DNA of 7,432 nucleotides, taken from the IMG/VR virus record IMGVR_UViG_2548876951_000007; one strand, given 5' to 3'. The position numbers and the translations under genes are program-made. The DNA is from a virus (Duplodnaviria > Heunggongvirae > Uroviricota > Caudoviricetes). How positions within the stretch are numbered: the first letter of the stretch is position 1; every line of letters starts with the position of its first letter. The notes beneath the pieces were generated by a model that made no database searches, was not told where the DNA came from, and saw only the letters and a program-made list of their open reading frames with translations. Positions 1 to 7,432 of this stretch are shown one piece after another.

Positions 1-35
1 CCGGTACCAGAACAGGTCGAAGTAATACCCGCACG

Positions 36-308
36 TTACCTCCAGATGCGTTGCTGATATGTGCGGGACGGACGCGGCGGGCGTTCGGAATAAGGGAGCC
101 TGACGGAAATTATCCAGTGTCGGAAGTCAGGACTGAGGCCTTTCTGAAACTGGTATCCACGTCTGCGGTAATTCTGAATCAGCCACTCGGCCTGTTCTTC
201 AGTGCATTGGTCATGCTGGTACCAGTCATATTTGAATGCGTGAGAGCGCCGTCCGTGTCTGCTGGCAGGGTCGGCATCAGAATTGTGGTGTTTGGTATTG
301 TGCGCCAT
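36..308 (-). CDS. hypothetical protein (about 90 aa from first ATG; track ORF opens at TTG 389)
   Basis: Minus-strand ORF with protein-like composition. The track start at 387-389 is TTG and lies inside the U-tract of the terminator at 381-406, so the first in-frame ATG (306-308) is the more plausible start, though its SD is weak (GAGA). No motif recognised. Confidence 0.3.
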   Translation of the reverse strand: MAHNTKHHNSDADPASRHGRRSHAFKYDWYQHDQCTEEQAEWLIQNYRRRGYQFQKGLSPDFRHWIISVRLPYSERPPRPSRTYQQRIWR

Positions 309-380
309 CGGTTGTCTCTGCTGGCGCAGCAGGTGCCAGTTGTTCAGGCTGGCGTGTGGATTGTAAACCAGAACGCCAGG

Positions 381-406
381 AAAAAACAAAACCCGCGAAG
401 CGGGTT
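381..406 (-). terminator. Rho-independent terminator downstream of the restriction endonuclease gene
   Basis: Forward 390-406 AACCCGCGAAGCGGGTT forms a perfect 7-bp GC-rich stem with a 3-nt loop. On the minus strand it is followed directly by UUUUGUUUUUU (forward 381-389), about 75 nt after the REase stop at 479-481. Confidence 0.6.
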
Positions 407-478
407 AGTAAAAATGTACTGAAGTCAATGACGTGCCATCACAGTTAAAATATGACAGACTCTATTTACGTAGAGATG

Positions 479-1357
479 TCAGACTGCAAGATCCAAGGGA
501 AGATCAGAAATATCCTTTAATCTTTTACCATTAACCATCACGGAAAGCATGTCAGCTGCATCGCTGAGCCCCAGTATTTCAACTGCTGATATAAGTTCAT
601 AAAGCGCAAAATGATACACGCAATCTATATCACCAGTACCAAGAGCAATAGACGCCAGACGACTTGGAGTAGGCTCAGCAGTAACAACCATTACATGAGG
701 GAGATTTCCCTTACGGTTGCGAATAAGATTTAATGCCTCAGAACGAGCATTCTGGGCCCGGTCGCTTCTTATTGTCCATTTGCAGGAAATACTTGCGTGT
801 AATATTGGTTTCCCACCATTCGAACTCCTGAGAGCTGACATGCGGGTAACAGAATCATCCACCAGTAATTCAGGACTGTTGATAACTTGATCACATTCAG
901 GTTCTCTTTCAACAATAATATCTGGTGAAATCGTATAATCACTCCCCAGTGCAGCAGCTAGCTGAGGATTACTTTTTGCAGCACTATCCAATGCTATAAG
1001 ATGGGCATATTGTTCATATTTAGCTATCTCTAATCTGTTTCTACCAGAAACCTGATGTACATTCCATTTTCCAGGGCGTAAGTGGCTGAGTTTAAAAAAG
1101 GTTTTTTCTATAAACTCTGCGCAGATACTCTCAAACTGATTACCAGATGTTTGCCCTGCAACACGTTCACCAATCGTTTCAGCCTGCAAGAAGCGAGCAA
1201 TTTCTCTTGCTATAGCTTTACTGTTTTTGTTACTGCTATCTGCGTTACTAACAACTCCGGCAGTATTAATTGTGAGCGTATTCAGTAACAATTGGGCATG
1301 AAACTCCTTTCTGGCTTCAGCAAAACCAACTATGCTGTCAACCAAATCTCCATTCAT
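479..1357 (-). CDS. Type II restriction endonuclease, NgoMIV/Cfr10I/Bse634I-like family (CCGG-core recognition expected)
   Basis: 292-aa ORF from ATG 1355-1357 (M46 of the track ORF), with AGGA about 9 nt upstream and starting 13 nt after the MTase stop. Contains SPDIIV (PD) and HASISCKW (S-x-K) followed by RSDRAQNARSE, which I recall as the variant PD...SxK active site of the NgoMIV/Cfr10I fold. The track start at 1492 would overlap the MTase gene by 120 nt and is less likely. Confidence 0.7.
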   Translation of the reverse strand: MNGDLVDSIVGFAEARKEFHAQLLLNTLTINTAGVVSNADSSNKNSKAIAREIARFLQAETIGERVAGQTSGNQFESICAEFIEKTFFKLSHLRPGKWNVHQVSGRNRLEIAKYEQYAHLIALDSAAKSNPQLAAALGSDYTISPDIIVEREPECDQVINSPELLVDDSVTRMSALRSSNGGKPILHASISCKWTIRSDRAQNARSEALNLIRNRKGNLPHVMVVTAEPTPSRLASIALGTGDIDCVYHFALYELISAVEILGLSDAADMLSVMVNGKRLKDISDLPLDLAV

Positions 1358-1370
1358 TTCTGGATTTCCT

Positions 1371-2495
1371 TCAGGCTGCTTGACTATTCTTACTGATGTT
1401 ATTCTTATACCGTCCCTGCAAAACTCCATACACATATTGTGCGATTTTTGCTGCAAATAGCGGTGGAACAGCATTCCCGATCTGCTTTGCAATCTCAGTT
1501 TTTGAACCGGTAAAAATGAAATTATCAGGAAAAGACATTAATCTCGCTGCCTCACGATGAGTTATTGGCCGATCCTCTTCCGGATGTAAATATCGCCCTT
1601 TCTCCGGTTTGAAAAACTCAGTACGAATCGTTACTGAAGGTCTGTCCCACCACAGACGTCCAAACAAATCGGTCCCTCCAGATTTCTTTTTTAGCCAGCA
1701 CGCCGGGGTTATATCAGGTCTTTTTTTCTGTAAATCGAAACGGTTACCTCCTGGTGGAACCGCTTTATATCGCTCCAGAGAAACAGGTGTGGGATTACGC
1801 CCAAAATGTAAGTTCAGCGGAGGAAGTTCATTACGAATATCAGTTCCAACAGGAGCAGGTAAGTCACCAATTGCATCACGCGTACAGACCCATTCAGGCA
1901 AAGCGACATCCTTATCAGGGGAACGATGCGTTGGTGCTGGCGGGAACGCCGGAATACTATGCACATCGAAGAGTTCTCGTTTGATACCGATTGCTATCGT
2001 TCGTTTTCTTGTCTGAGGTACTCCATAGTCAGCAGTATTCAACACCATTGGATTAAGCAGAATAAAGCCCATGGATTTCGCTCTAAACGTAATGTCCGCA
2101 AACTCATCGCTTATCAGCAATCCGGGGACATTTTCCATGACGAACATACAAGCCCTTGAACGCTCAATGACATCCATATAAGGCTCCCACAATGCTCTTC
2201 GGTGATCACCATAACGATTCTTATTCAATAAACTGAATCCCTGACACGGGGGGCCACCTATGACCACATCAGCCTCAGGAACAGTATTGCTGGATGCCCA
2301 CTCCTCAATATTTGCCTGAACTCCATGCAAACCAAAATTGGCATTGTAGGTATTTATAGCTGCAGCATTATTATCAATAGCAAGGATACTTTCAAAGTAG
2401 TCAGACATCTCTCCATGAAGAAAACCATAAGATAATCCACCTGCCCCACAAAAGAGGTCTATCACTCTGAATTTATTTAATTCTTTCATCCGCAT
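1371..2495 (-). CDS. DNA (cytosine-5)-methyltransferase, Type II R-M modification subunit
   Basis: 374 aa with canonical C5-MTase motifs in order: motif I DLFCGAGGLSYGF, motif IV GGPPCQGFS, motif VI ENVPGL, motif VIII VPQTRKRTIAIG, motif X QIGNAVPP. GAGG about 8 nt upstream of ATG 2495. Confidence 0.9.
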   Translation of the reverse strand: MRMKELNKFRVIDLFCGAGGLSYGFLHGEMSDYFESILAIDNNAAAINTYNANFGLHGVQANIEEWASSNTVPEADVVIGGPPCQGFSLLNKNRYGDHRRALWEPYMDVIERSRACMFVMENVPGLLISDEFADITFRAKSMGFILLNPMVLNTADYGVPQTRKRTIAIGIKRELFDVHSIPAFPPAPTHRSPDKDVALPEWVCTRDAIGDLPAPVGTDIRNELPPLNLHFGRNPTPVSLERYKAVPPGGNRFDLQKKRPDITPACWLKKKSGGTDLFGRLWWDRPSVTIRTEFFKPEKGRYLHPEEDRPITHREAARLMSFPDNFIFTGSKTEIAKQIGNAVPPLFAAKIAQYVYGVLQGRYKNNISKNSQAA

Positions 2496-2578
2496 CCATA
2501 TGCCTCAGATTAATGTTGAGCGTCTTACAGGACGCGTAATGTTAACTGGGGCTTTCTCTATCTGCCTTTTGGTGTTCA

Positions 2579-2603
2579 TGCCTGAGGCAGACAGCCTCAG
2601 GCA
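2579..2603 (-). promoter_or_regulatory. 9-bp-stem perfect palindrome (TGCCTGAGG-N7-CCTCAGGCA) between the QueH-like and MTase genes; operator or leader hairpin
   Basis: Seen directly in the sequence. No U-tract follows on either strand, so it is not a canonical intrinsic terminator. It sits immediately downstream of the candidate promoter at 2613-2641. Confidence 0.35.
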
Positions 2604-2612
2604 CCCGCAGCA

Positions 2613-2641
2613 ATTCTACTTAACTCACGTCACCTCGCCAA
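2613..2641 (-). promoter_or_regulatory. candidate sigma70 promoter for the MTase/REase genes
   Basis: On the minus strand: TTGGCG (forward 2636-2641), a 17-nt spacer, then TAGAAT (forward 2613-2618). Consensus match only, no experimental support. Confidence 0.3.
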
Positions 2642-2673
2642 TATGAAATCAATCAGAAAGGTGATCCATAAAA

Positions 2674-3360
2674 TCACTCCTTCTCTTCTTTTCCGTAGTG
2701 GAGTTGGCCAATTTTGATAAGAGGGCGTCCCTGAGATTTGCGGTGTAGATTGGTATCGCGCAGAGAATACACACAGCCACAATATTCCTGCTGATAGAAT
2801 TTTTCGCGCTTGCTGATTTCAATCATACGGGACGAGCCGCCCTGCTTGCGCCAGTTATAATCCCAGTACACCATACCCGGATAATGCGCAACAGCTCGCC
2901 GCCCACACTCGTTAATCTGCTGCATATTTTTCCAGCGTGAAATGCCCAGTGAACTGCTGATCACACTGAAACCATTTTCAGCAGCGTACAACGCTGTCCG
3001 CTCAAAACGCATGTCAAAACACATGGTACAACGGATCCCCCTCTCAGGCTCCCATTCCATTCCTTTGGCACGTTCAAACCAGTTGTCGGTGTCGTAATCA
3101 GCATCGATAAACGGCACGCCGTGTTGTTCAGCAAAGCGAATATTTTCATCCTTACGAATTAAATACTCTTTCTGAGGATGAATGTTCGGGTTGTAGAAAA
3201 AGATGGTGTAGTCGATTCCCGAGGCCTGAAGCGCCTCCATCACTTCACCGGAACATGGAGCACAGCAAGAGTGCAGTAGTAGTTTGTTTGCCCCGTTTGG
3301 GAGCTCCAATTTAGGCCGTTTGAAATCAGCAATAGTCATAAATATTTTTATTGGGGTCAT
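2674..3360 (-). CDS. queH: QueH-like (DUF208) epoxyqueuosine reductase family protein, putative Fe-S enzyme
   Basis: 228-aa ORF with an N-terminal [11 protein letters not shown] motif, a central [10 protein letters not shown] and a C-terminal EYCGCVYS. This Cys pattern matches what I recall of the QueH/DUF208 family. The start is uncertain: neither ATG 3360 nor ATG 3339 has a clear SD. Confidence 0.55.
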
Positions 3361-3513
3361 GAAAATAGCACAGAGTGTAGCATCAGAGCAGGGCTATCGG
3401 GAATATATGTCTAAATCTGGTAATATCTGGTTTTGACGCAAAGCGGACAACCACGCTGGCTCTACCCTGCGCCATGAAAATGTCAATTCACATCTGAACT
3501 AATGCTCTTTAAT

Positions 3514-3939
3514 CTAGTAACGTCTAAAATACCTAACATTTCCTTGATAAAATGCCAGTACACGCTGCATAGCTTCGCTCTTCCGGCACTCGCGACAGAT
3601 TATGTTTAGGCGCCTGTCGTAGCGGCGTATTTCGCCGTCTGGTAATAGCCAGATAAGGTCCGGATCAACCACAGATGGTTTCTTCAGCTTTGCCCTTGAG
3701 AGTTTTTTGCGGGCGTTTTGCCAGTCCTTGCGCGCCTGCTCAGACGGGAATACTCCGTAACCGGAATTGTAAACATCACCACTGGCGGCCAGCTCCATGC
3801 ATAAACGACCGACAGACGCATGACTGACACCAATTTCATCCGATAACTGCCGAATCGTGCCTCGTCCGTTAAGGCGTACGAATTCCACGATCAGCCCTTT
3901 AATTTTTTCCCGCTCTTCTTGTGTAAAAACTTTTGCCAC
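3514..3939 (-). CDS. HTH-domain protein, function unknown (sits where a helicase loader is expected)
   Basis: 141-aa ORF starting at GTG 3937-3939, preceded by a strong SD (AGGAGGG, about 4 nt spacer), 38 nt downstream of the upstream replication-gene stop. Predicted HTH around TIRQLSDEIGVSHASVGRL; basic C-terminus. No DnaC/P-like Walker motifs. Confidence 0.5.
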   Translation of the reverse strand: MAKVFTQEEREKIKGLIVEFVRLNGRGTIRQLSDEIGVSHASVGRLCMELAASGDVYNSGYGVFPSEQARKDWQNARKKLSRAKLKKPSVVDPDLIWLLPDGEIRRYDRRLNIICRECRKSEAMQRVLAFYQGNVRYFRRY

Positions 3940-3979
3940 AAGCCCTCCTGAAAATTACCTCATGACCAGAAATTAACAC

Positions 3980-4942
3980 TTACCCCCTGAAGCCCGGCGG
4001 AATTTCAGTGTCCGGTTCAGAAATGTGATTCACGCAACGCTGCGCAGGTGAACGCCCCAGGCGGATAACCAGTTCATCCCATTTTTCCCGGAGTTTTGCC
4101 GGACTCATGATGTTTTTTACCCAGAACGAATCCCGCTGGAGACGCCCAAACATTTCACAAATTTGTCTGTGAGTTCTGCCATCCAGCATCCGCATTGTGC
4201 GAACGTCATTGGCCCATGCTGTCCAGTTGGGTTCTTTCGGTCTAGTGATCTCGCCATCATCGCTGGCCGCCTGCTCGTAAAGACTCACGATTCGTCCCCA
4301 GATCCACTGTGCGCACACCAAATCTTCCTGACTTCCCCACTGGCGTTTTTTCGCACTGAACACAACCGCGTCAGGGTGTCGGGTTAAAAAATCCTGTTCA
4401 GCCATCTGCGGGTCCGGTTGCGAAGCGTCCGGACAAGAAGATCTTTTATCTGACGGATCAGGTTTTAATACTGACGGATCGGGGTCAATCATCGCCCCCC
4501 TAATCGGCAGTTTTTTATCAACAGTTGATCCATCAAAATTTAACGGGTCAACCGTTGAGGGGTCAATATTTGACGGGTCAACTGTTAACGGGTCATTTTT
4601 TGCCGGGCTAATTTTTCTTTTCGGTTTATATGACTCACGCGCCGCCGCCGCAGCTGCTTCGAGTTTTTCCACATTAAGCCGATAGATATTGCTTACATTA
4701 CGCCCACCGACCTTACGCTCTTCCTTCGTCAGCCAGCCCTCTTTCGCCAGTTCTGCAATAGCCGATTTCACTGTGGATTCACTTCTTGCACCGATCTGAC
4801 GCCGGATAGTTTCAATGGCAGGCCATGACACGCCCTCGTCATTGCTGTAGTCTGCAAGACGGGCCATAACCGCCACCCTGGATAAGATCATGCCGGTGAA
4901 GGCGCACCCTTCCCAGACAAGACCATGAAGCTTGCTGCTCAT
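3980..4942 (-). CDS. phage replication initiation protein (O-like / YdaU-position), N-terminal winged-helix domain
   Basis: About 320 aa from ATG 4940-4942 (the track start at 4957 is GTG). The N-terminal segment WPAIETIRRQIGARSESTVKSAIAELAKEGWLTKEER resembles the HTH of phage/plasmid replication initiators. The central low-complexity VDP-repeat linker is encoded by the tandem 15-bp iterons. It lies immediately downstream of the YdaT-like gene, as in Rac. Confidence 0.6.
   Translation of the reverse strand: MSSKLHGLVWEGCAFTGMILSRVAVMARLADYSNDEGVSWPAIETIRRQIGARSESTVKSAIAELAKEGWLTKEERKVGGRNVSNIYRLNVEKLEAAAAAARESYKPKRKISPAKNDPLTVDPSNIDPSTVDPLNFDGSTVDKKLPIRGAMIDPDPSVLKPDPSDKRSSCPDASQPDPQMAEQDFLTRHPDAVVFSAKKRQWGSQEDLVCAQWIWGRIVSLYEQAASDDGEITRPKEPNWTAWANDVRTMRMLDGRTHRQICEMFGRLQRDSFWVKNIMSPAKLREKWDELVIRLGRSPAQRCVNHISEPDTEIPPGFRG
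4541..4615. repeat. five tandem 15-bp iterons (consensus about TRACGGGTCAAnnnT) inside the replication gene; putative origin
   Basis: GGGTCA/GGGCTA cores start at 4545, 4560, 4575, 4590 and 4605, an exact 15-bp period. A degenerate copy lies at 4481-4489. The adjacent 4505-4540 stretch is AT-rich and 4440-4530 holds four GATC sites. Confidence 0.6.
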
Positions 4943-4964: not shown

Positions 4965-5390
4965 TTAGTGCATCACCACAGCATTCCCTGCCGGGCCGCC
5001 GCGATTCATCTGGTCATACAAAACAACCGCTGACGCAACAAAATCATCGACATCCTTCACCAGCCGATCCCTCCGTTCGACGATCTCACGGTAATATTCA
5101 GAACTGTGGCTGCGCATACGGGCCACCAGCAAAGGCGGCATCGCCTTTTCGATCGCCGGTAACAGAGCCTGCATTTTTTCAACAGCATCAGGGGTGTCTT
5201 TATCCAGCCAACGGAAAATTTTCTGGGTATTACGGGCCAGGGCTTCCGGATGGCTGTCGTCGTACAGTTCAGGGAACGTCATCCCCAGTTCGAAATAAGT
5301 CCGGGCTATTTCAGCTGCAGGAACTTTCTCACCATCAGGGTATGCCCAGGCATTCATCGCCATGCGGATGTGCTCATGTTTGATTTTCAT
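4965..5390 (-). CDS. ydaT: YdaT-like prophage protein
   Basis: 141-aa ORF with ATG at 5388-5390, overlapping the upstream Cro-like gene end by 17 nt (translational coupling). Size and position (third gene after the repressor, second in the cro-side operon) match Rac ydaT. Assigned by synteny and recalled similarity, not by search. Confidence 0.55.
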   Translation of the reverse strand: MKIKHEHIRMAMNAWAYPDGEKVPAAEIARTYFELGMTFPELYDDSHPEALARNTQKIFRWLDKDTPDAVEKMQALLPAIEKAMPPLLVARMRSHSSEYYREIVERRDRLVKDVDDFVASAVVLYDQMNRGGPAGNAVVMH

Positions 5391-5697
5391 GAATCATTTG
5401 CCTCTTGATGCTTCGGGTATGATCGTTTTCGTCATTTGGTTGCTTCATCGACATATTCTGCGAATAACATGACGAGCGTCGTAAGTATGTCCAATCAACA
5501 TCAGGACGAAGTTCTTCACACAGGACACCACCTTTTGTTGCTCGTTCAATCGCAGGACATCTCTCAGCAGGTAACTGACGTACACCTTTGATCCATTGAT
5601 TTACGCTTGGAGGAGATACACCTAAAAGCCTAGCCATTGCTGATTGCCCACCGACAACAGCACAAGCTCGTTTGAATGAATAGTTATCTTTTTTCAT
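5374..5697 (-). CDS. ydaS: Cro-like HTH DNA-binding protein (YdaS-like)
   Basis: 107 aa from ATG 5695-5697 with GGAG 10-13 nt upstream; the track start at 5718 is GTG and lies upstream of the predicted transcription start. HTH segment QSAMARLLGVSPPSVNQWIKGVRQLP. Transcribed divergently from the repressor gene. Confidence 0.65.
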   Translation of the reverse strand: MKKDNYSFKRACAVVGGQSAMARLLGVSPPSVNQWIKGVRQLPAERCPAIERATKGGVLCEELRPDVDWTYLRRSSCYSQNMSMKQPNDENDHTRSIKRQMIHENQT

Positions 5698-5724
5698 CGA
5701 ATGAACTCCAAAAAACACGCAACA

Positions 5725-5792
5725 ATATTAGGTTTAGCCTAATGAAATTGTCAATAGGCTATGCCTAATACATCGAGAGTAGGGATTGCCTA
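5725..5792 (-). promoter_or_regulatory. cro-side (PR-like) promoter with three operator-like dyads
   Basis: On the minus strand: -35 TTGACA (forward 5749-5754), an 18-nt spacer, -10 TAATAT (forward 5725-5730). Three TAGG-N5-CCTA dyads at 5729-5741, 5755-5767 and 5780-5792, with centres 26 and 25 bp apart. Confidence 0.5.
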
Positions 5793-5821
5793 ACGCGATG
5801 CGCATAGGAGACTATTAAGCA

Positions 5822-6298
5822 ATGCTTAGTGGTAAAGACTTAGGCCGAGCGATAGAGCAGGCCATTAACAAAAAAATTGCATCAGGAGCCGTCAAATCAA
5901 AGGCGGAAATCGCACGTCATTTCAAAGTCCAACCACCATCAATCCATGACTGGATTAAGAAAGGTTCGATAAGTAAAGACAAACTTCCAGAACTATGGCG
6001 TTTCTTTTCTGATGTGGTTGGTCCAGAGCATTGGGGGCTTAACGAATACCCCATACCAACCCCATCCACTTCAGATACAAAAAGTGAACTTTTAGACATA
6101 AACAGCCTTTATCAAGCCGCCTCTGATGAAAAAAGAGCAATTGTGGCTTTCATCTTATCTGGAAATGCTACGGAGCCTAGTTGGGTTGATCATGACGTTC
6201 GCGCCTACATTGCCGCAATGGAAATGAAGGTAGCTAACTATCTGAAAAATCAAGAATCAAAACGGAAAAGCCAGAACATCACCAAGACAGGAACTTAA
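5822..6298 (+). CDS. racR: prophage repressor, RacR-like HTH protein
   Basis: 158-aa ORF with an N-terminal HTH (SKAEIARHFKVQPPSIHDWIKKG), divergent from the Cro-like gene and flanked by operator clusters. Length and synteny match Rac racR. Confidence 0.65.
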   Translation: MLSGKDLGRAIEQAINKKIASGAVKSKAEIARHFKVQPPSIHDWIKKGSISKDKLPELWRFFSDVVGPEHWGLNEYPIPTPSTSDTKSELLDINSLYQAASDEKRAIVAFILSGNATEPSWVDHDVRAYIAAMEMKVANYLKNQESKRKSQNITKTGT

Positions 6299-6312
6299 AC
6301 TTATATGGTCCG

Positions 6313-6334
6313 ACGGGAAATTCCTAGTTCCCGT
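6313..6334 (+). terminator. possible terminator hairpin after the repressor gene
   Basis: ACGGGAA-N8-TTCCCGT, a perfect 7-bp inverted repeat about 15 nt after the racR-like stop. The downstream T-tract is weak (TAGTTAACT). Confidence 0.3.
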
Positions 6335-6374
6335 TAGTTAACTCCTACTACCTCTCCCACAAACCATCACCTAT

Positions 6375-6435
6375 TAGGTTGCGCCCAGATTATTAGGCAT
6401 AGCCTATTGACAAGTAATTAGGCATTTCCTATAGT
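6375..6435 (+). promoter_or_regulatory. rightward (PL-like) promoter with three operator-like dyads
   Basis: -35 TTGACA 6407-6412, a 17-nt spacer, -10 TATAGT 6430-6435. TAGG-N5-CCTA dyads at 6394-6406 and 6419-6431, plus an imperfect one (TAGG-N5-CCCA) at 6375-6387. Nearly identical to the cro-side promoter but in mirror orientation. Confidence 0.5.
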
Positions 6436-6616
6436 TTTCCCATACCAACCCATCCCGTCCCACACAATACAGGGCAATACCTCGAGTTACCAGGCAGTGG
6501 TCAGGGGTTAAGTAGCCAGCCCGAGGCGTAAGAACATGACGGCAGGGTTCAACTTTAATAACTATGCAGCAGGTTTTTGTTCCGCTACCCCGGCGTTAAG
6601 GGGAAATGAGGTCAGC

Positions 6617-6769
6617 ATGGATACTATCGAGCTTGGCAACAACGAATCTCTGGTATGCGGCGTGTTTCCCAACCAGGACGGCACGTTTACCGCGATGACA
6701 TATACCAGAAGCAAAACGTTTAAAACTGAAGCTGGCGCGCGTCGCTGGTTAACCAGAAACACTGACTGA
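6617..6769 (+). CDS. small early-operon protein (about 50 aa; possibly YdaF/YdaG-like)
   Basis: ATG 6617-6619 with GAGG about 7 nt upstream; first gene downstream of the rightward promoter. An alternative start at ATG 6536 (77 aa) also has GAGG 9 nt upstream. No motif recognised. Confidence 0.45.
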   Translation: MDTIELGNNESLVCGVFPNQDGTFTAMTYTRSKTFKTEAGARRWLTRNTD

Positions 6770-6780
6770 TGAGGTTGACG

Positions 6781-7101
6781 ATGGAATTTAAAGATTTACC
6801 AGTACCATTCCAGGAAATGGCATCGAATGTGGTTCGCTCTCAACTGGCGACTCTTGACCTGAGTACCGTAGAAAAAGAAACCATCGACAATATATCCGGT
6901 AACGTACGCCGAGCCTTTATCGGGCTGTACGAAGAGAAGCAGCTCTCTGATAACCAGGATTTACATGAAAAATACTTCCTGGATCTAATGGACATCATTG
7001 ATAAGGGGTTTGGCTTGTTAATGAAAAAGAAAGGGATTCGAATAGAACCCCTTGAAAATTACTTTGCAACAAAAAGCATTAATTCTTTTGATTCAAAATA
7101 A
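6781..7101 (+). CDS. hypothetical protein (106 aa)
   Basis: ATG 6781 with GAGG about 6 nt upstream, 12 nt after the stop of the preceding small gene (operon-like spacing). The track start at 6769 is an upstream in-frame ATG without an SD. Its 3-prime end overlaps the convergent ORF 7079..7354 by 23 nt. Confidence 0.45.
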   Translation: MEFKDLPVPFQEMASNVVRSQLATLDLSTVEKETIDNISGNVRRAFIGLYEEKQLSDNQDLHEKYFLDLMDIIDKGFGLLMKKKGIRIEPLENYFATKSINSFDSK

Positions 7102-7354
7102 GAGAATTAATTACAGACTTAACATGCTCTTTCTCATGATTGAAGCTCTCATGATTGAAAGTGCCGGGTTGAAGCGAGTCGATATAATCAACAAGACTCT
7201 GTCGTACGACTTCATTTTTATCCATAACAGATGCAAGAAATGAAATTGCTAAAAGAGTTATATCACTACGCGCCGCAGCATGTTGCAATGCTTTATCAAA
7301 ATTATTAATCTGGCGTATCAGGGAGTTAATGATTTCATCATTTTCAGTCGACAT
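7079..7354 (-). CDS. hypothetical protein (91 aa)
   Basis: ATG 7352-7354 preceded by a strong SD (AGGAGGG, about 5 nt spacer). The track ORF extends to the window edge (7432) without a start there, so the internal ATG with the SD is taken as the start. AT-rich, acidic N-terminus; function unknown. Confidence 0.45.
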   Translation of the reverse strand: MSTENDEIINSLIRQINNFDKALQHAAARSDITLLAISFLASVMDKNEVVRQSLVDYIDSLQPGTFNHESFNHEKEHVKSVINSLILNQKN

Positions 7355-7432
7355 TTCACCCTCCTGAGGGTTGGTGATTAAGGAGTTCTCCACGGGTGAG
7401 GTGGAGTGCGTGCGCCGGACACGGGTGAGCAT

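Follow-up and report, generated by a model that had tools for sequence, protein, structure and literature searches.

An NgoMIV-type restriction-modification cassette in a remnant hok locus of a mosaic lambdoid Escherichia coli prophage

Introduction

Prophage-borne restriction-modification (R-M) systems, morons and defence hotspots are well established (PMC9122126, PMC4176335), familiar examples of such variable regions being the nin/ren region of lambda and the defence-system hotspots that prophages of the P2 and P4 kind carry (PMC9122126). In lambdoid prophages, hok/sok loci such as hokW-sokW of Sp5 are functional type I toxin-antitoxin systems (PMC8621323). The NgoMIV system of Neisseria gonorrhoeae is a Type IIP R-M system with the site GCCGGC. 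QueH (DUF208) is a B12-independent alternative to QueG, the enzyme that the E. coli chromosome uses for the queuosine step. All of these systems meet in the DNA studied here, a stretch of 7,432 nucleotides (the window) from the Caudoviricetes record IMGVR_UViG_2548876951_000007 of IMG/VR. It represents the minus-strand early-right operon of a lambdoid prophage of E. coli whose immunity is of the Rac type, and the genes in question are those that follow the replication initiator: DUF977, queH and an R-M pair consisting of a C5 methyltransferase (M) and an endonuclease (R).

How does this locus compare with the described systems? Like hokD/relF in Qin-type prophages and hokW-sokW in Sp5, it occupies the slot between the replication genes and DUF968-RusA-Q, and like hok/sok loci it has the promoter, the first part of the leader, the mok ribosome-binding site and the terminator; a role in stabilising or protecting the prophage is likely to be shared too. 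Unlike them, it is a remnant rather than a member of the family, its mok, hok and Sok region being swapped for M and R. With the NgoMIV system it shares an endonuclease similar over its full length, the important residues and a C5 methyltransferase directly upstream, but the pair resides in a lambdoid prophage, within a converted hok locus, rather than on a chromosome or small plasmid; it is AT-rich (GC content at third codon positions, GC3, about 32-37%), and a close donor was not found. As in morons and defence hotspots, conserved flanks enclose a slot with varying cargo (hokD, R-M, Kiwa-like genes), and the cargo of the window has its own promoter-like and terminator-like signals. Here, however, the slot belongs to Rac/Qin/Stx-like lambdoid prophages and lies between DUF977/queH and a gene of family phrog_1212, and the cassette took on the signals for transcription and translation that the displaced module had used. 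The QueH protein resembles its described counterparts in its full-length Pfam match, its Cys motifs and its identity to chromosomal QueH, but is encoded by a prophage in a species with chromosomal QueG.

A first-pass annotation of the window had read positions 410-3513 as one block of foreign cargo that replaced the helicase loader and the nin region and could act as a unit. Our analysis leads to a different picture. The region is an ordinary prophage mosaic with one tidy addiction-module swap; in all probability, 410-3513 is not a single cargo unit but a stack of separately inherited modules in a slot that matches the ren/nin region of lambda.

Results

Replacement of the hok core

Our comparisons draw on related E. 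coli prophage loci of 10-20 kb each (L001-L011) and on 5426 complete E. coli genomes, the base of all genome counts below. The features that carry the main finding are these:

408-2501, minus strand: AT-rich R-M cassette of 2094 bp (BLAST against L005 and L006, alignments)
2502-2641, minus strand: hok transcription-unit remnant (Rfam RF01794, promoter scan, alignments)
1371-2489/2495, minus strand: C5 cytosine DNA methyltransferase M (Pfam PF00145, 185 bits; TIGR00675; PADLOC MTase_II)
479-1357, minus strand: Type II endonuclease R of the NgoMIV family, 292 aa, intact (PF09015, 422 bits; PADLOC REase_II)
381-406, minus strand: intrinsic terminator AACCCGCTTCGCGGGTT with T-run (terminator scan, alignment)

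Against the queH-hokD prophages L005 and L006, BLAST homology covers 1-407 and 2502-3948 of the window, and 2094 bp replace a 287-bp hokD segment, with breakpoints at 407/408 and 2501/2502. R-M DNA is present in 60 of the genomes, 59 of which carry copies at least 99% identical. As the left junction is intact in 59 and the right junction in all 60 of them, the alignments indicate that R-M replaced the mok/hok/sok core in a single event.

What is left of the hok locus lies immediately outside the right breakpoint. By promoter scan and alignment, the kept hok promoter (TTGGCG and TAGAAT with a 17-nt spacer) occupies 2641-2613, the putative transcription start is near 2606, with the leader running from GGGTGC, and the hok mRNA leader is retained for its first 104 nt. 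The Rfam model RF01794, collinear with the hok mRNA leader in spite of its name, sok, matches 2606-2426 with 61 bits (gathering score 59) and is well aligned only for model positions 1-88 of 157; an intact hokD locus, aligned from end to end, reaches 120.5 bits. The homology to hokD ends at the mok Shine-Dalgarno sequence, and neither the hok and mok reading frames nor the Sok-coding region are left. This Shine-Dalgarno sequence, GAGG (2506-2503) within a kept CTGAGGC, stands 7 or 13 nt upstream of M, whose start is ATG 2495 or ATG 2489, respectively, the latter being annotated and kept in strain A34. R-M copies occur in three upstream contexts in which the surrounding DNA differs while a -35-like TTGGCG, TTTGCG or TTGGCA, the 17-nt spacer and TAGAAT are kept, lending modest support to a working promoter.

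At the other end, positions 1-407 are homologous to prophages with and without the cargo (BLAST). The terminator, at 381-406 or, more narrowly, 390-406, is common to all relatives whatever lies upstream, and homology to cargo-free prophages ends at 407; it is likely both the left boundary of the variable slot and the 3' end of the M-R transcript. A match to the RyhB family on the minus strand at 383-440 (24 bits against a gathering score of 55, E = 0.53) was rejected, as it corresponds to the terminator hairpin. Transposition of the cassette was likewise dropped for want of supporting repeats: a search for transposon-like repeats at its ends returned short matches at chance level, none of them at 408 or 2501. 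A 21-nt imperfect inverted repeat (465-485 and 2399-2419, 81% complementary) lies just inside the ends, near the stop of R and in the 5' part of M; with repeats of similar size elsewhere in the region, it is probably due to chance.

The restriction-modification pair

R matches PF09015 (NgoMIV_restric) over profile positions 1-275 of 275 and is 66% identical to NgoMIV (PDB 1FIU) over 282 positions (phmmer E = 1e-118). All eleven residues that we checked, D34, E70, D140, C186, K187, R191, S192, D193, R194, E201 and R227, are conserved between the two; D140, K187, E201, E70, R191, D193, R194, D34 and R227 we take to be those with catalytic or CCGG/GC-contact roles in NgoMIV. M is an intact C5 methylase immediately upstream, its stop codon 13 nt before the start of R, which has an AGGA ribosome-binding site of its own. 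M matches the phage families phrog_116 and phrog_363, R matches no PHROG family, and no record of the phage collection carries this R-M pair. GCCGGC sites are absent from the window (0 against 1.4 expected), and the hexamer is under-represented across L001-L011 (0-3 sites against 3.4-5.8 expected) with or without R-M.

Base composition

The first-pass annotation had contrasted the GC content of 410-3513 with that of the flanking genes. Computed over whole genes, GC content is 41.7% in R, 44.1% in M, 47.3% in queH, 49.3% in DUF977, 51.6% in the initiator and 52.3% in the YdaT-like gene, and in the immunity genes 42.3% (YdaS) and 42.6% (RacR). The earlier hand counts for R and M (35-47%) and for queH (about 50%) were thus roughly correct, but the 62-63% given for the initiator and YdaT lies about ten points too high; in 60-nt lines of these two genes the mean is 52.1% and the richest line reaches 60%. 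GC3 per gene is 32% in R, 36.5% in M and 52% in queH. Composition is not uniform across the window: synonymous GC3 is 31.5% in R-M against 49.6% in the initiator, YdaT and DUF977 together (chi-square p = 2e-10). The same measure gives 50.0% for queH, no different from the backbone (p about 1). The contrast therefore stands for the R-M pair and fails for queH, and the compositional island, though real, spans about 408-2501 (overall GC 42.7%) rather than 410-3513. R-M, of foreign, AT-rich origin, is the sole part of 410-3513 with foreign composition. It is no more AT-rich than ydaS (p = 0.32), and GC contents of 44% or less are found in 9-32% of 300-nt windows across the related prophage loci; the island falls inside the usual patchiness of these mosaics.

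Distribution of the modules

The remaining features of the window, with the operon read from right to left, are the following:

5822-6298, plus strand, divergent: RacR (NCBIfam equivalog NF049929, 246 bits, cutoff 200)
5374-5697, minus strand: YdaS/Cro-like protein
4965-5390, minus strand: YdaT-like protein
3980-4942, minus strand: O-like replication initiator with a helix-turn-helix, 320 aa (Pfam HTH_36; phrog_391, 386 bits)
3940-3979, minus strand: intergenic junction between initiator and DUF977, loaderless arrangement
3514-3939, minus strand: DUF977 backbone gene (Pfam PF06163, 99 bits; phrog_142)
3578-3603, strandless: recombination joint within DUF977 (mismatch map)
2674-3339, minus strand: queH, epoxyqueuosine reductase, 221 aa (Pfam PF02677, 223 bits)
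36-314, minus strand: backbone gene for a 92-aa protein (phrog_1212), function not assigned (PHROG match; annotated in L001 and L002)
1-34, minus strand: 5' end of the DUF968 gene

Transcription thus proceeds through YdaS, YdaT-like, initiator, DUF977, QueH, M, R, the 92-aa gene and DUF968, and in relatives the operon goes on with DUF968, RusA and Q. The gene positions agree with those first annotated (check of open reading frames and Pfam), and the RefSeq names of all genes in this region are already correct. Beyond the immunity module, 6441-7432 (DUF1391/ydfA-ydfB-ydfC-like) is also mosaic, with relatives matching 6441-6748, 6781-7432 or just 7369-7432.

If DUF977, queH, M and R acted as one unit, as had been proposed, they should be found together in other prophages. 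They distribute independently: queH DNA is present in 995 genomes (about 18%) and R-M in 60, with the two adjoining in 57. Such an association is expected if R-M arose there once, in a queH-hok prophage. In most examples inspected (L005 and L006, also L008 and the isolated phage HannyBb, which carries queH as well), hokD comes after queH and ahead of the 92-aa gene and DUF968. At least two genomes have R-M without queH, with other genes in its place; their homology to the window is limited to 1-2629 in L009 (strain 2014C-3051) and to 388-2618 in L010 (strain A34). From these limits, the mobile piece is the converted hok unit, comprising promoter, leader, M, R and terminator, about 388-2629. 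R-M is found in a set of complete genomes of O157:H7, most of them of cattle origin, and in O111, O103 and O39 strains.

Other occupants of the slot are hokD (L005, L006) and Kiwa-like genes (L007). In strain 7/2 (L007 2810-5666, compared with 2502-3339 of the window), queH is separated from a hok-leader remnant by a hypothetical gene and a KwaB-like (Kiwa) gene, and in strain A34 (L010 9516-11151) the R-M unit has genes annotated as 'beta family' and 'sce7726 family' upstream. Defence or addiction cargo appears to have a hotspot around the hok unit in these prophages. The idea of a moron insertion or module replacement thus survives in part: some of the region was acquired, in a variable slot between the replication genes and Q, but not 410-3513 as a whole. 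Presence and absence among relatives and precise boundaries (407/408, 2501/2502 and about 3535) are as in morons, a composition unlike the backbone is found for R-M and not for queH, and the R-M pair's own promoter and terminator are consensus matches, namely the hok promoter and the shared terminator.

The queH module

QueH matches PF02677 over profile positions 1-174 of 175 and aligns with the solved Thermotoga QueH (PDB 7LC5, E = 5e-22) including the CCAPC, RCxxC and CGC motifs. It is 80-87% identical to the chromosomal QueH of Erwinia, Photorhabdus, Providencia, Proteus and others, and looks like a captured Enterobacterales housekeeping gene, an origin that its backbone-like composition fits. 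The conserved module extends from about 2668 to 3455/3534, with a breakpoint about 3535. The corresponding family, phrog_3217, is listed in PHROGs with function unknown, and PADLOC gave no match for queH.

DUF977 and its recombination joint

DUF977 takes the position of ren in lambda and is annotated as 'Ren-like exclusion protein' or LygF, function not assigned. As it directly follows the initiator, or the loader and DUF1627, in thousands of genomes, it is a backbone gene and not cargo. An equation with YdaW of K-12 was dropped: BLASTP found no match to the ydaW product, though phage records name homologues 'YdaW family' or 'LygF'. The mismatch map reveals a joint within the gene. Against L002, of the queH-type lineage, 3400-3603 has zero mismatches, whereas 3604-3953 has about 75 (about 78% identity) and is about 99% identical to L003, of the loaderless 042-type lineage; against L003, 3535-4100 has 7 mismatches, all but two at or below 3577. 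With the queH-type lineage to the left of the joint and the 042-type lineage to its right, the window is a recombinant with a crossover in DUF977 at about 3578-3603.

The replication module and the comparison with Rac

The initiator combines an N-terminal winged helix-turn-helix with a C-terminal half that matches DnaD-like or replisome-organiser families, residues 196-302 matching phrog_2514 ('DnaD-like helicase loader'). As the first-pass annotation had noticed, the window has no helicase loader: none was found among its open reading frames, and only 40 nt separate the initiator stop from the DUF977 start. The further claim that the block displaced the loader does not hold. The closest relatives over the whole window, L001 (at ompW), L002 (at yccA) and L011, are 97-98% identical and have the same queH-M-R genes, yet carry 1.55 kb with an ATP-binding loader (L001 10757-11497) and DUF1627 between initiator and DUF977; therefore the cargo did not replace the loader. 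The direct initiator-DUF977 junction is found in 1751 genomes (e.g. strains 042 and Ecol_316), with entirely different small genes downstream of DUF977, and the initiator-loader junction in 1151; the loaderless order also occurs in the deposited phage genomes HannyBb (complete genome) and vB_EcoS-813R8. Absence of the loader is an independent, common polymorphism of the replication module. As the initiator serves both arrangements (98% identity between relatives with and without loader) and has a DnaD-like C-terminal half, loaderless prophages could plausibly use host loading functions.

The Rac prophage of K-12 had been taken as the reference for this locus. Homology to it is limited to the immunity segment 5367-6750 (racR, ydaS, ydaF/ydaG-like; 86% identity): RacR belongs to the same equivalog, the racR-ydaS region has 86% DNA identity over 5367-6604, and the YdaS proteins share 85% identity. 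In contrast, YdaT is only 31% identical, and the Rac initiator YdaU (DUF1376) is unrelated save for its end. The Rac-type replication module (YdaU and YdaV) is not what the window has, a YdaV homologue not being found in it. Directly behind ydaW, Rac has the lysis-gene remnant rzpR and trkG, without a counterpart of the stretch from queH to Q. An alignment with Rac thus covers the immunity region but cannot locate the breakpoints, since the region itself has no counterpart there; the expectation that the gene order is not shared by all Rac-like prophages was borne out. The label 'Rac-like' fits the immunity module only, and because it shares only this region and has an unrelated initiator, Rac of K-12 is a poor template for expectations at this locus. 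The last 20 residues of the initiator are 70% identical to the C-terminus of YdaU, the proteins being otherwise unrelated, which suggests a shared docking tail.

Discussion

How would the converted locus serve the prophage? In characterised hok loci the promoter is weak and constitutive. From this promoter, M and then R would be transcribed in the lysogen, independently of repression by RacR; M would methylate GCCGGC in host and prophage DNA, and R would cut unmethylated incoming DNA, so that the lysogen is defended. Upon loss of the prophage, post-segregational killing could ensue, such that the R-M pair would inherit the stabilising role of hok/sok and add defence to it. At induction, read-through from pR would also express queH-M-R, because the terminator scan detected no minus-strand terminator from DUF977 through queH to M, and the phage progeny would then be methylated on release. 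Homologous recombination in its flanks presumably spreads the converted unit (about 388-2629) between prophages, and a homologous crossover at about 3578-3603 joined the loaderless 042-like replication module to the queH-bearing right arm. QueH would most likely convert epoxyqueuosine to queuosine in the tRNA of the lysogen or infected cell, independently of B12 and without QueG, as judged from its identity to the chromosomal enzymes of Enterobacterales. Tentatively, and as a possibility we rate below even, one may go further: R-M captured the full hok/sok expression unit in an addiction-module swap at the same address; the leader may still control M and R post-transcriptionally, for instance through delayed translation that aids safe establishment; and, through prophage queH, about 18% of genomes have a way to make queuosine-tRNA without B12.

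Several points weigh against parts of this scenario. The hok promoter and its transcription start derive from a consensus match and the alignment to the Rfam hok leader, and promoter-like sites in the region are no more frequent than chance predicts (5 found, 6.4 expected). The kept leader folds stably (-54.4 kcal/mol, z = -3.2) and could hinder rather than help translation of M, and because the insertion is recent, a leader conserved among R-M copies says little. A specificity for GCCGGC is inferred from the 66% identity to NgoMIV and the conserved contacts, and avoidance of the site, considered as a test of R-M activity, proved uninformative, as depletion is alike in prophage loci with and without R-M. 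Searches for a donor of the pair returned, among species representatives, a best homologue with 77-78% protein identity, the matches lying mostly in high-GC Proteobacteria, and, among plasmids, a best match with 66% DNA identity. Upstream of queH a coding-strand scan gave no promoter, and reading by eye gave only weak candidates; queH may be expressed only by read-through in lytic growth.

The most serious competing view concerns expression: the hok promoter and leader could be an inert scar, with M and R transcribed from a promoter inside the cassette or only by lytic read-through from pR, in which latter case the pair would mainly methylate progeny DNA or degrade host or competitor DNA instead of defending the lysogen. 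The lack of a detected terminator from DUF977 to M makes read-through plausible, the leader is strongly structured, and a stronger consensus (TTGAAA, 17 nt, AATAAT) exists at 2395-2367. This site lies within M, however, and could not yield full-length M. Moreover, the junction puts the mok ribosome-binding site exactly in front of M, the -35 and -10 elements persist in three contexts that differ in the DNA upstream, and a Type II system that stayed silent in the lysogen until induction would then cut host and prophage DNA lacking methylation, an arrangement that seems difficult to sustain. We therefore regard an inert scar as unlikely, though it is the alternative to be taken most seriously. 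More improbable still is that R is inactive or dispensable and M an orphan methylase by which the phage protects its DNA from hosts that cut GCCGGC. C5 methylases are common in phages, and M falls into two PHROG families while R falls into none; against this, R is of full length with all checked residues conserved at 66% identity to NgoMIV, is tightly coupled to M at a distance of 13 nt, and is annotated intact in copies of which 59 of 60 are at least 99% identical.

The single foreign block, in which DUF977, queH, M and R displaced the loader and nin region as one functional unit, draws on the contiguity and common orientation of the four genes between the initiator and DUF968-RusA-Q, the missing loader, and the 57 of 60 R-M copies that adjoin queH. 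We give it very little credence. The loader and DUF1627 coexist with queH-M-R in the closest relatives, the loaderless junction recurs in 1751 genomes with other genes downstream, queH is far more widespread than R-M (995 against 60 genomes), usually precedes hokD and can be missing beside R-M (L009, L010), queH and DUF977 have backbone composition, and a recombination joint runs through DUF977, itself a backbone gene. Hardly more can be said for a joint role of queH and R-M in 7-deazaguanine modification of DNA or in a related defence in place of tRNA maturation, which seems the least probable of the alternatives. Queuosine-pathway enzymes do modify DNA in phages and defence islands (PMC6884629, PMC10516641), and queH adjoins defence and addiction genes (hok, R-M, Kiwa-like) in these prophages. 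But homologues of DpdA/TGT, QueC, QueD and QueE are absent from the window (open reading frames and Pfam), QueH is 80-87% identical to chromosomal housekeeping enzymes, and queH has no PADLOC match and is distributed independently of R-M. The reading that we prefer thus remains that of separately inherited modules, one of which, the R-M cassette, took the place of the hok core.

As far as we know, an NgoMIV-type R-M system within the expression shell of hokD, a slot in which hokD, R-M and Kiwa-like genes are swapped, and the frequency of queH in prophages are new. Our literature search returned nothing specific on hok replaced by R-M or on NgoMIV-type R-M in E. coli prophages, and no paper linking QueH with prophages; one match to "QueH" was the name of an author and was discarded.

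Current concepts are unchanged by these results, which instead illustrate how finely lambdoid mosaicism is grained: one apparent island resolves into three layers, present in roughly 1750, 995 and 60 of the 5426 genomes, with crossovers inside genes. The takeover of one module's regulatory shell by the defence or addiction cassette that displaced it is open to test at sequence resolution, and the slot from queH/hok to the phrog_1212 gene is marked as a defence hotspot in Rac/Qin/Stx-like prophages. For the strains that carry it, the R-M pair could affect phage susceptibility, DNA uptake and 5-methylcytosine (m5C) methylomes, and the presence of queH suggests that an effect of prophages on the tRNA modification of E. 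coli has been overlooked.

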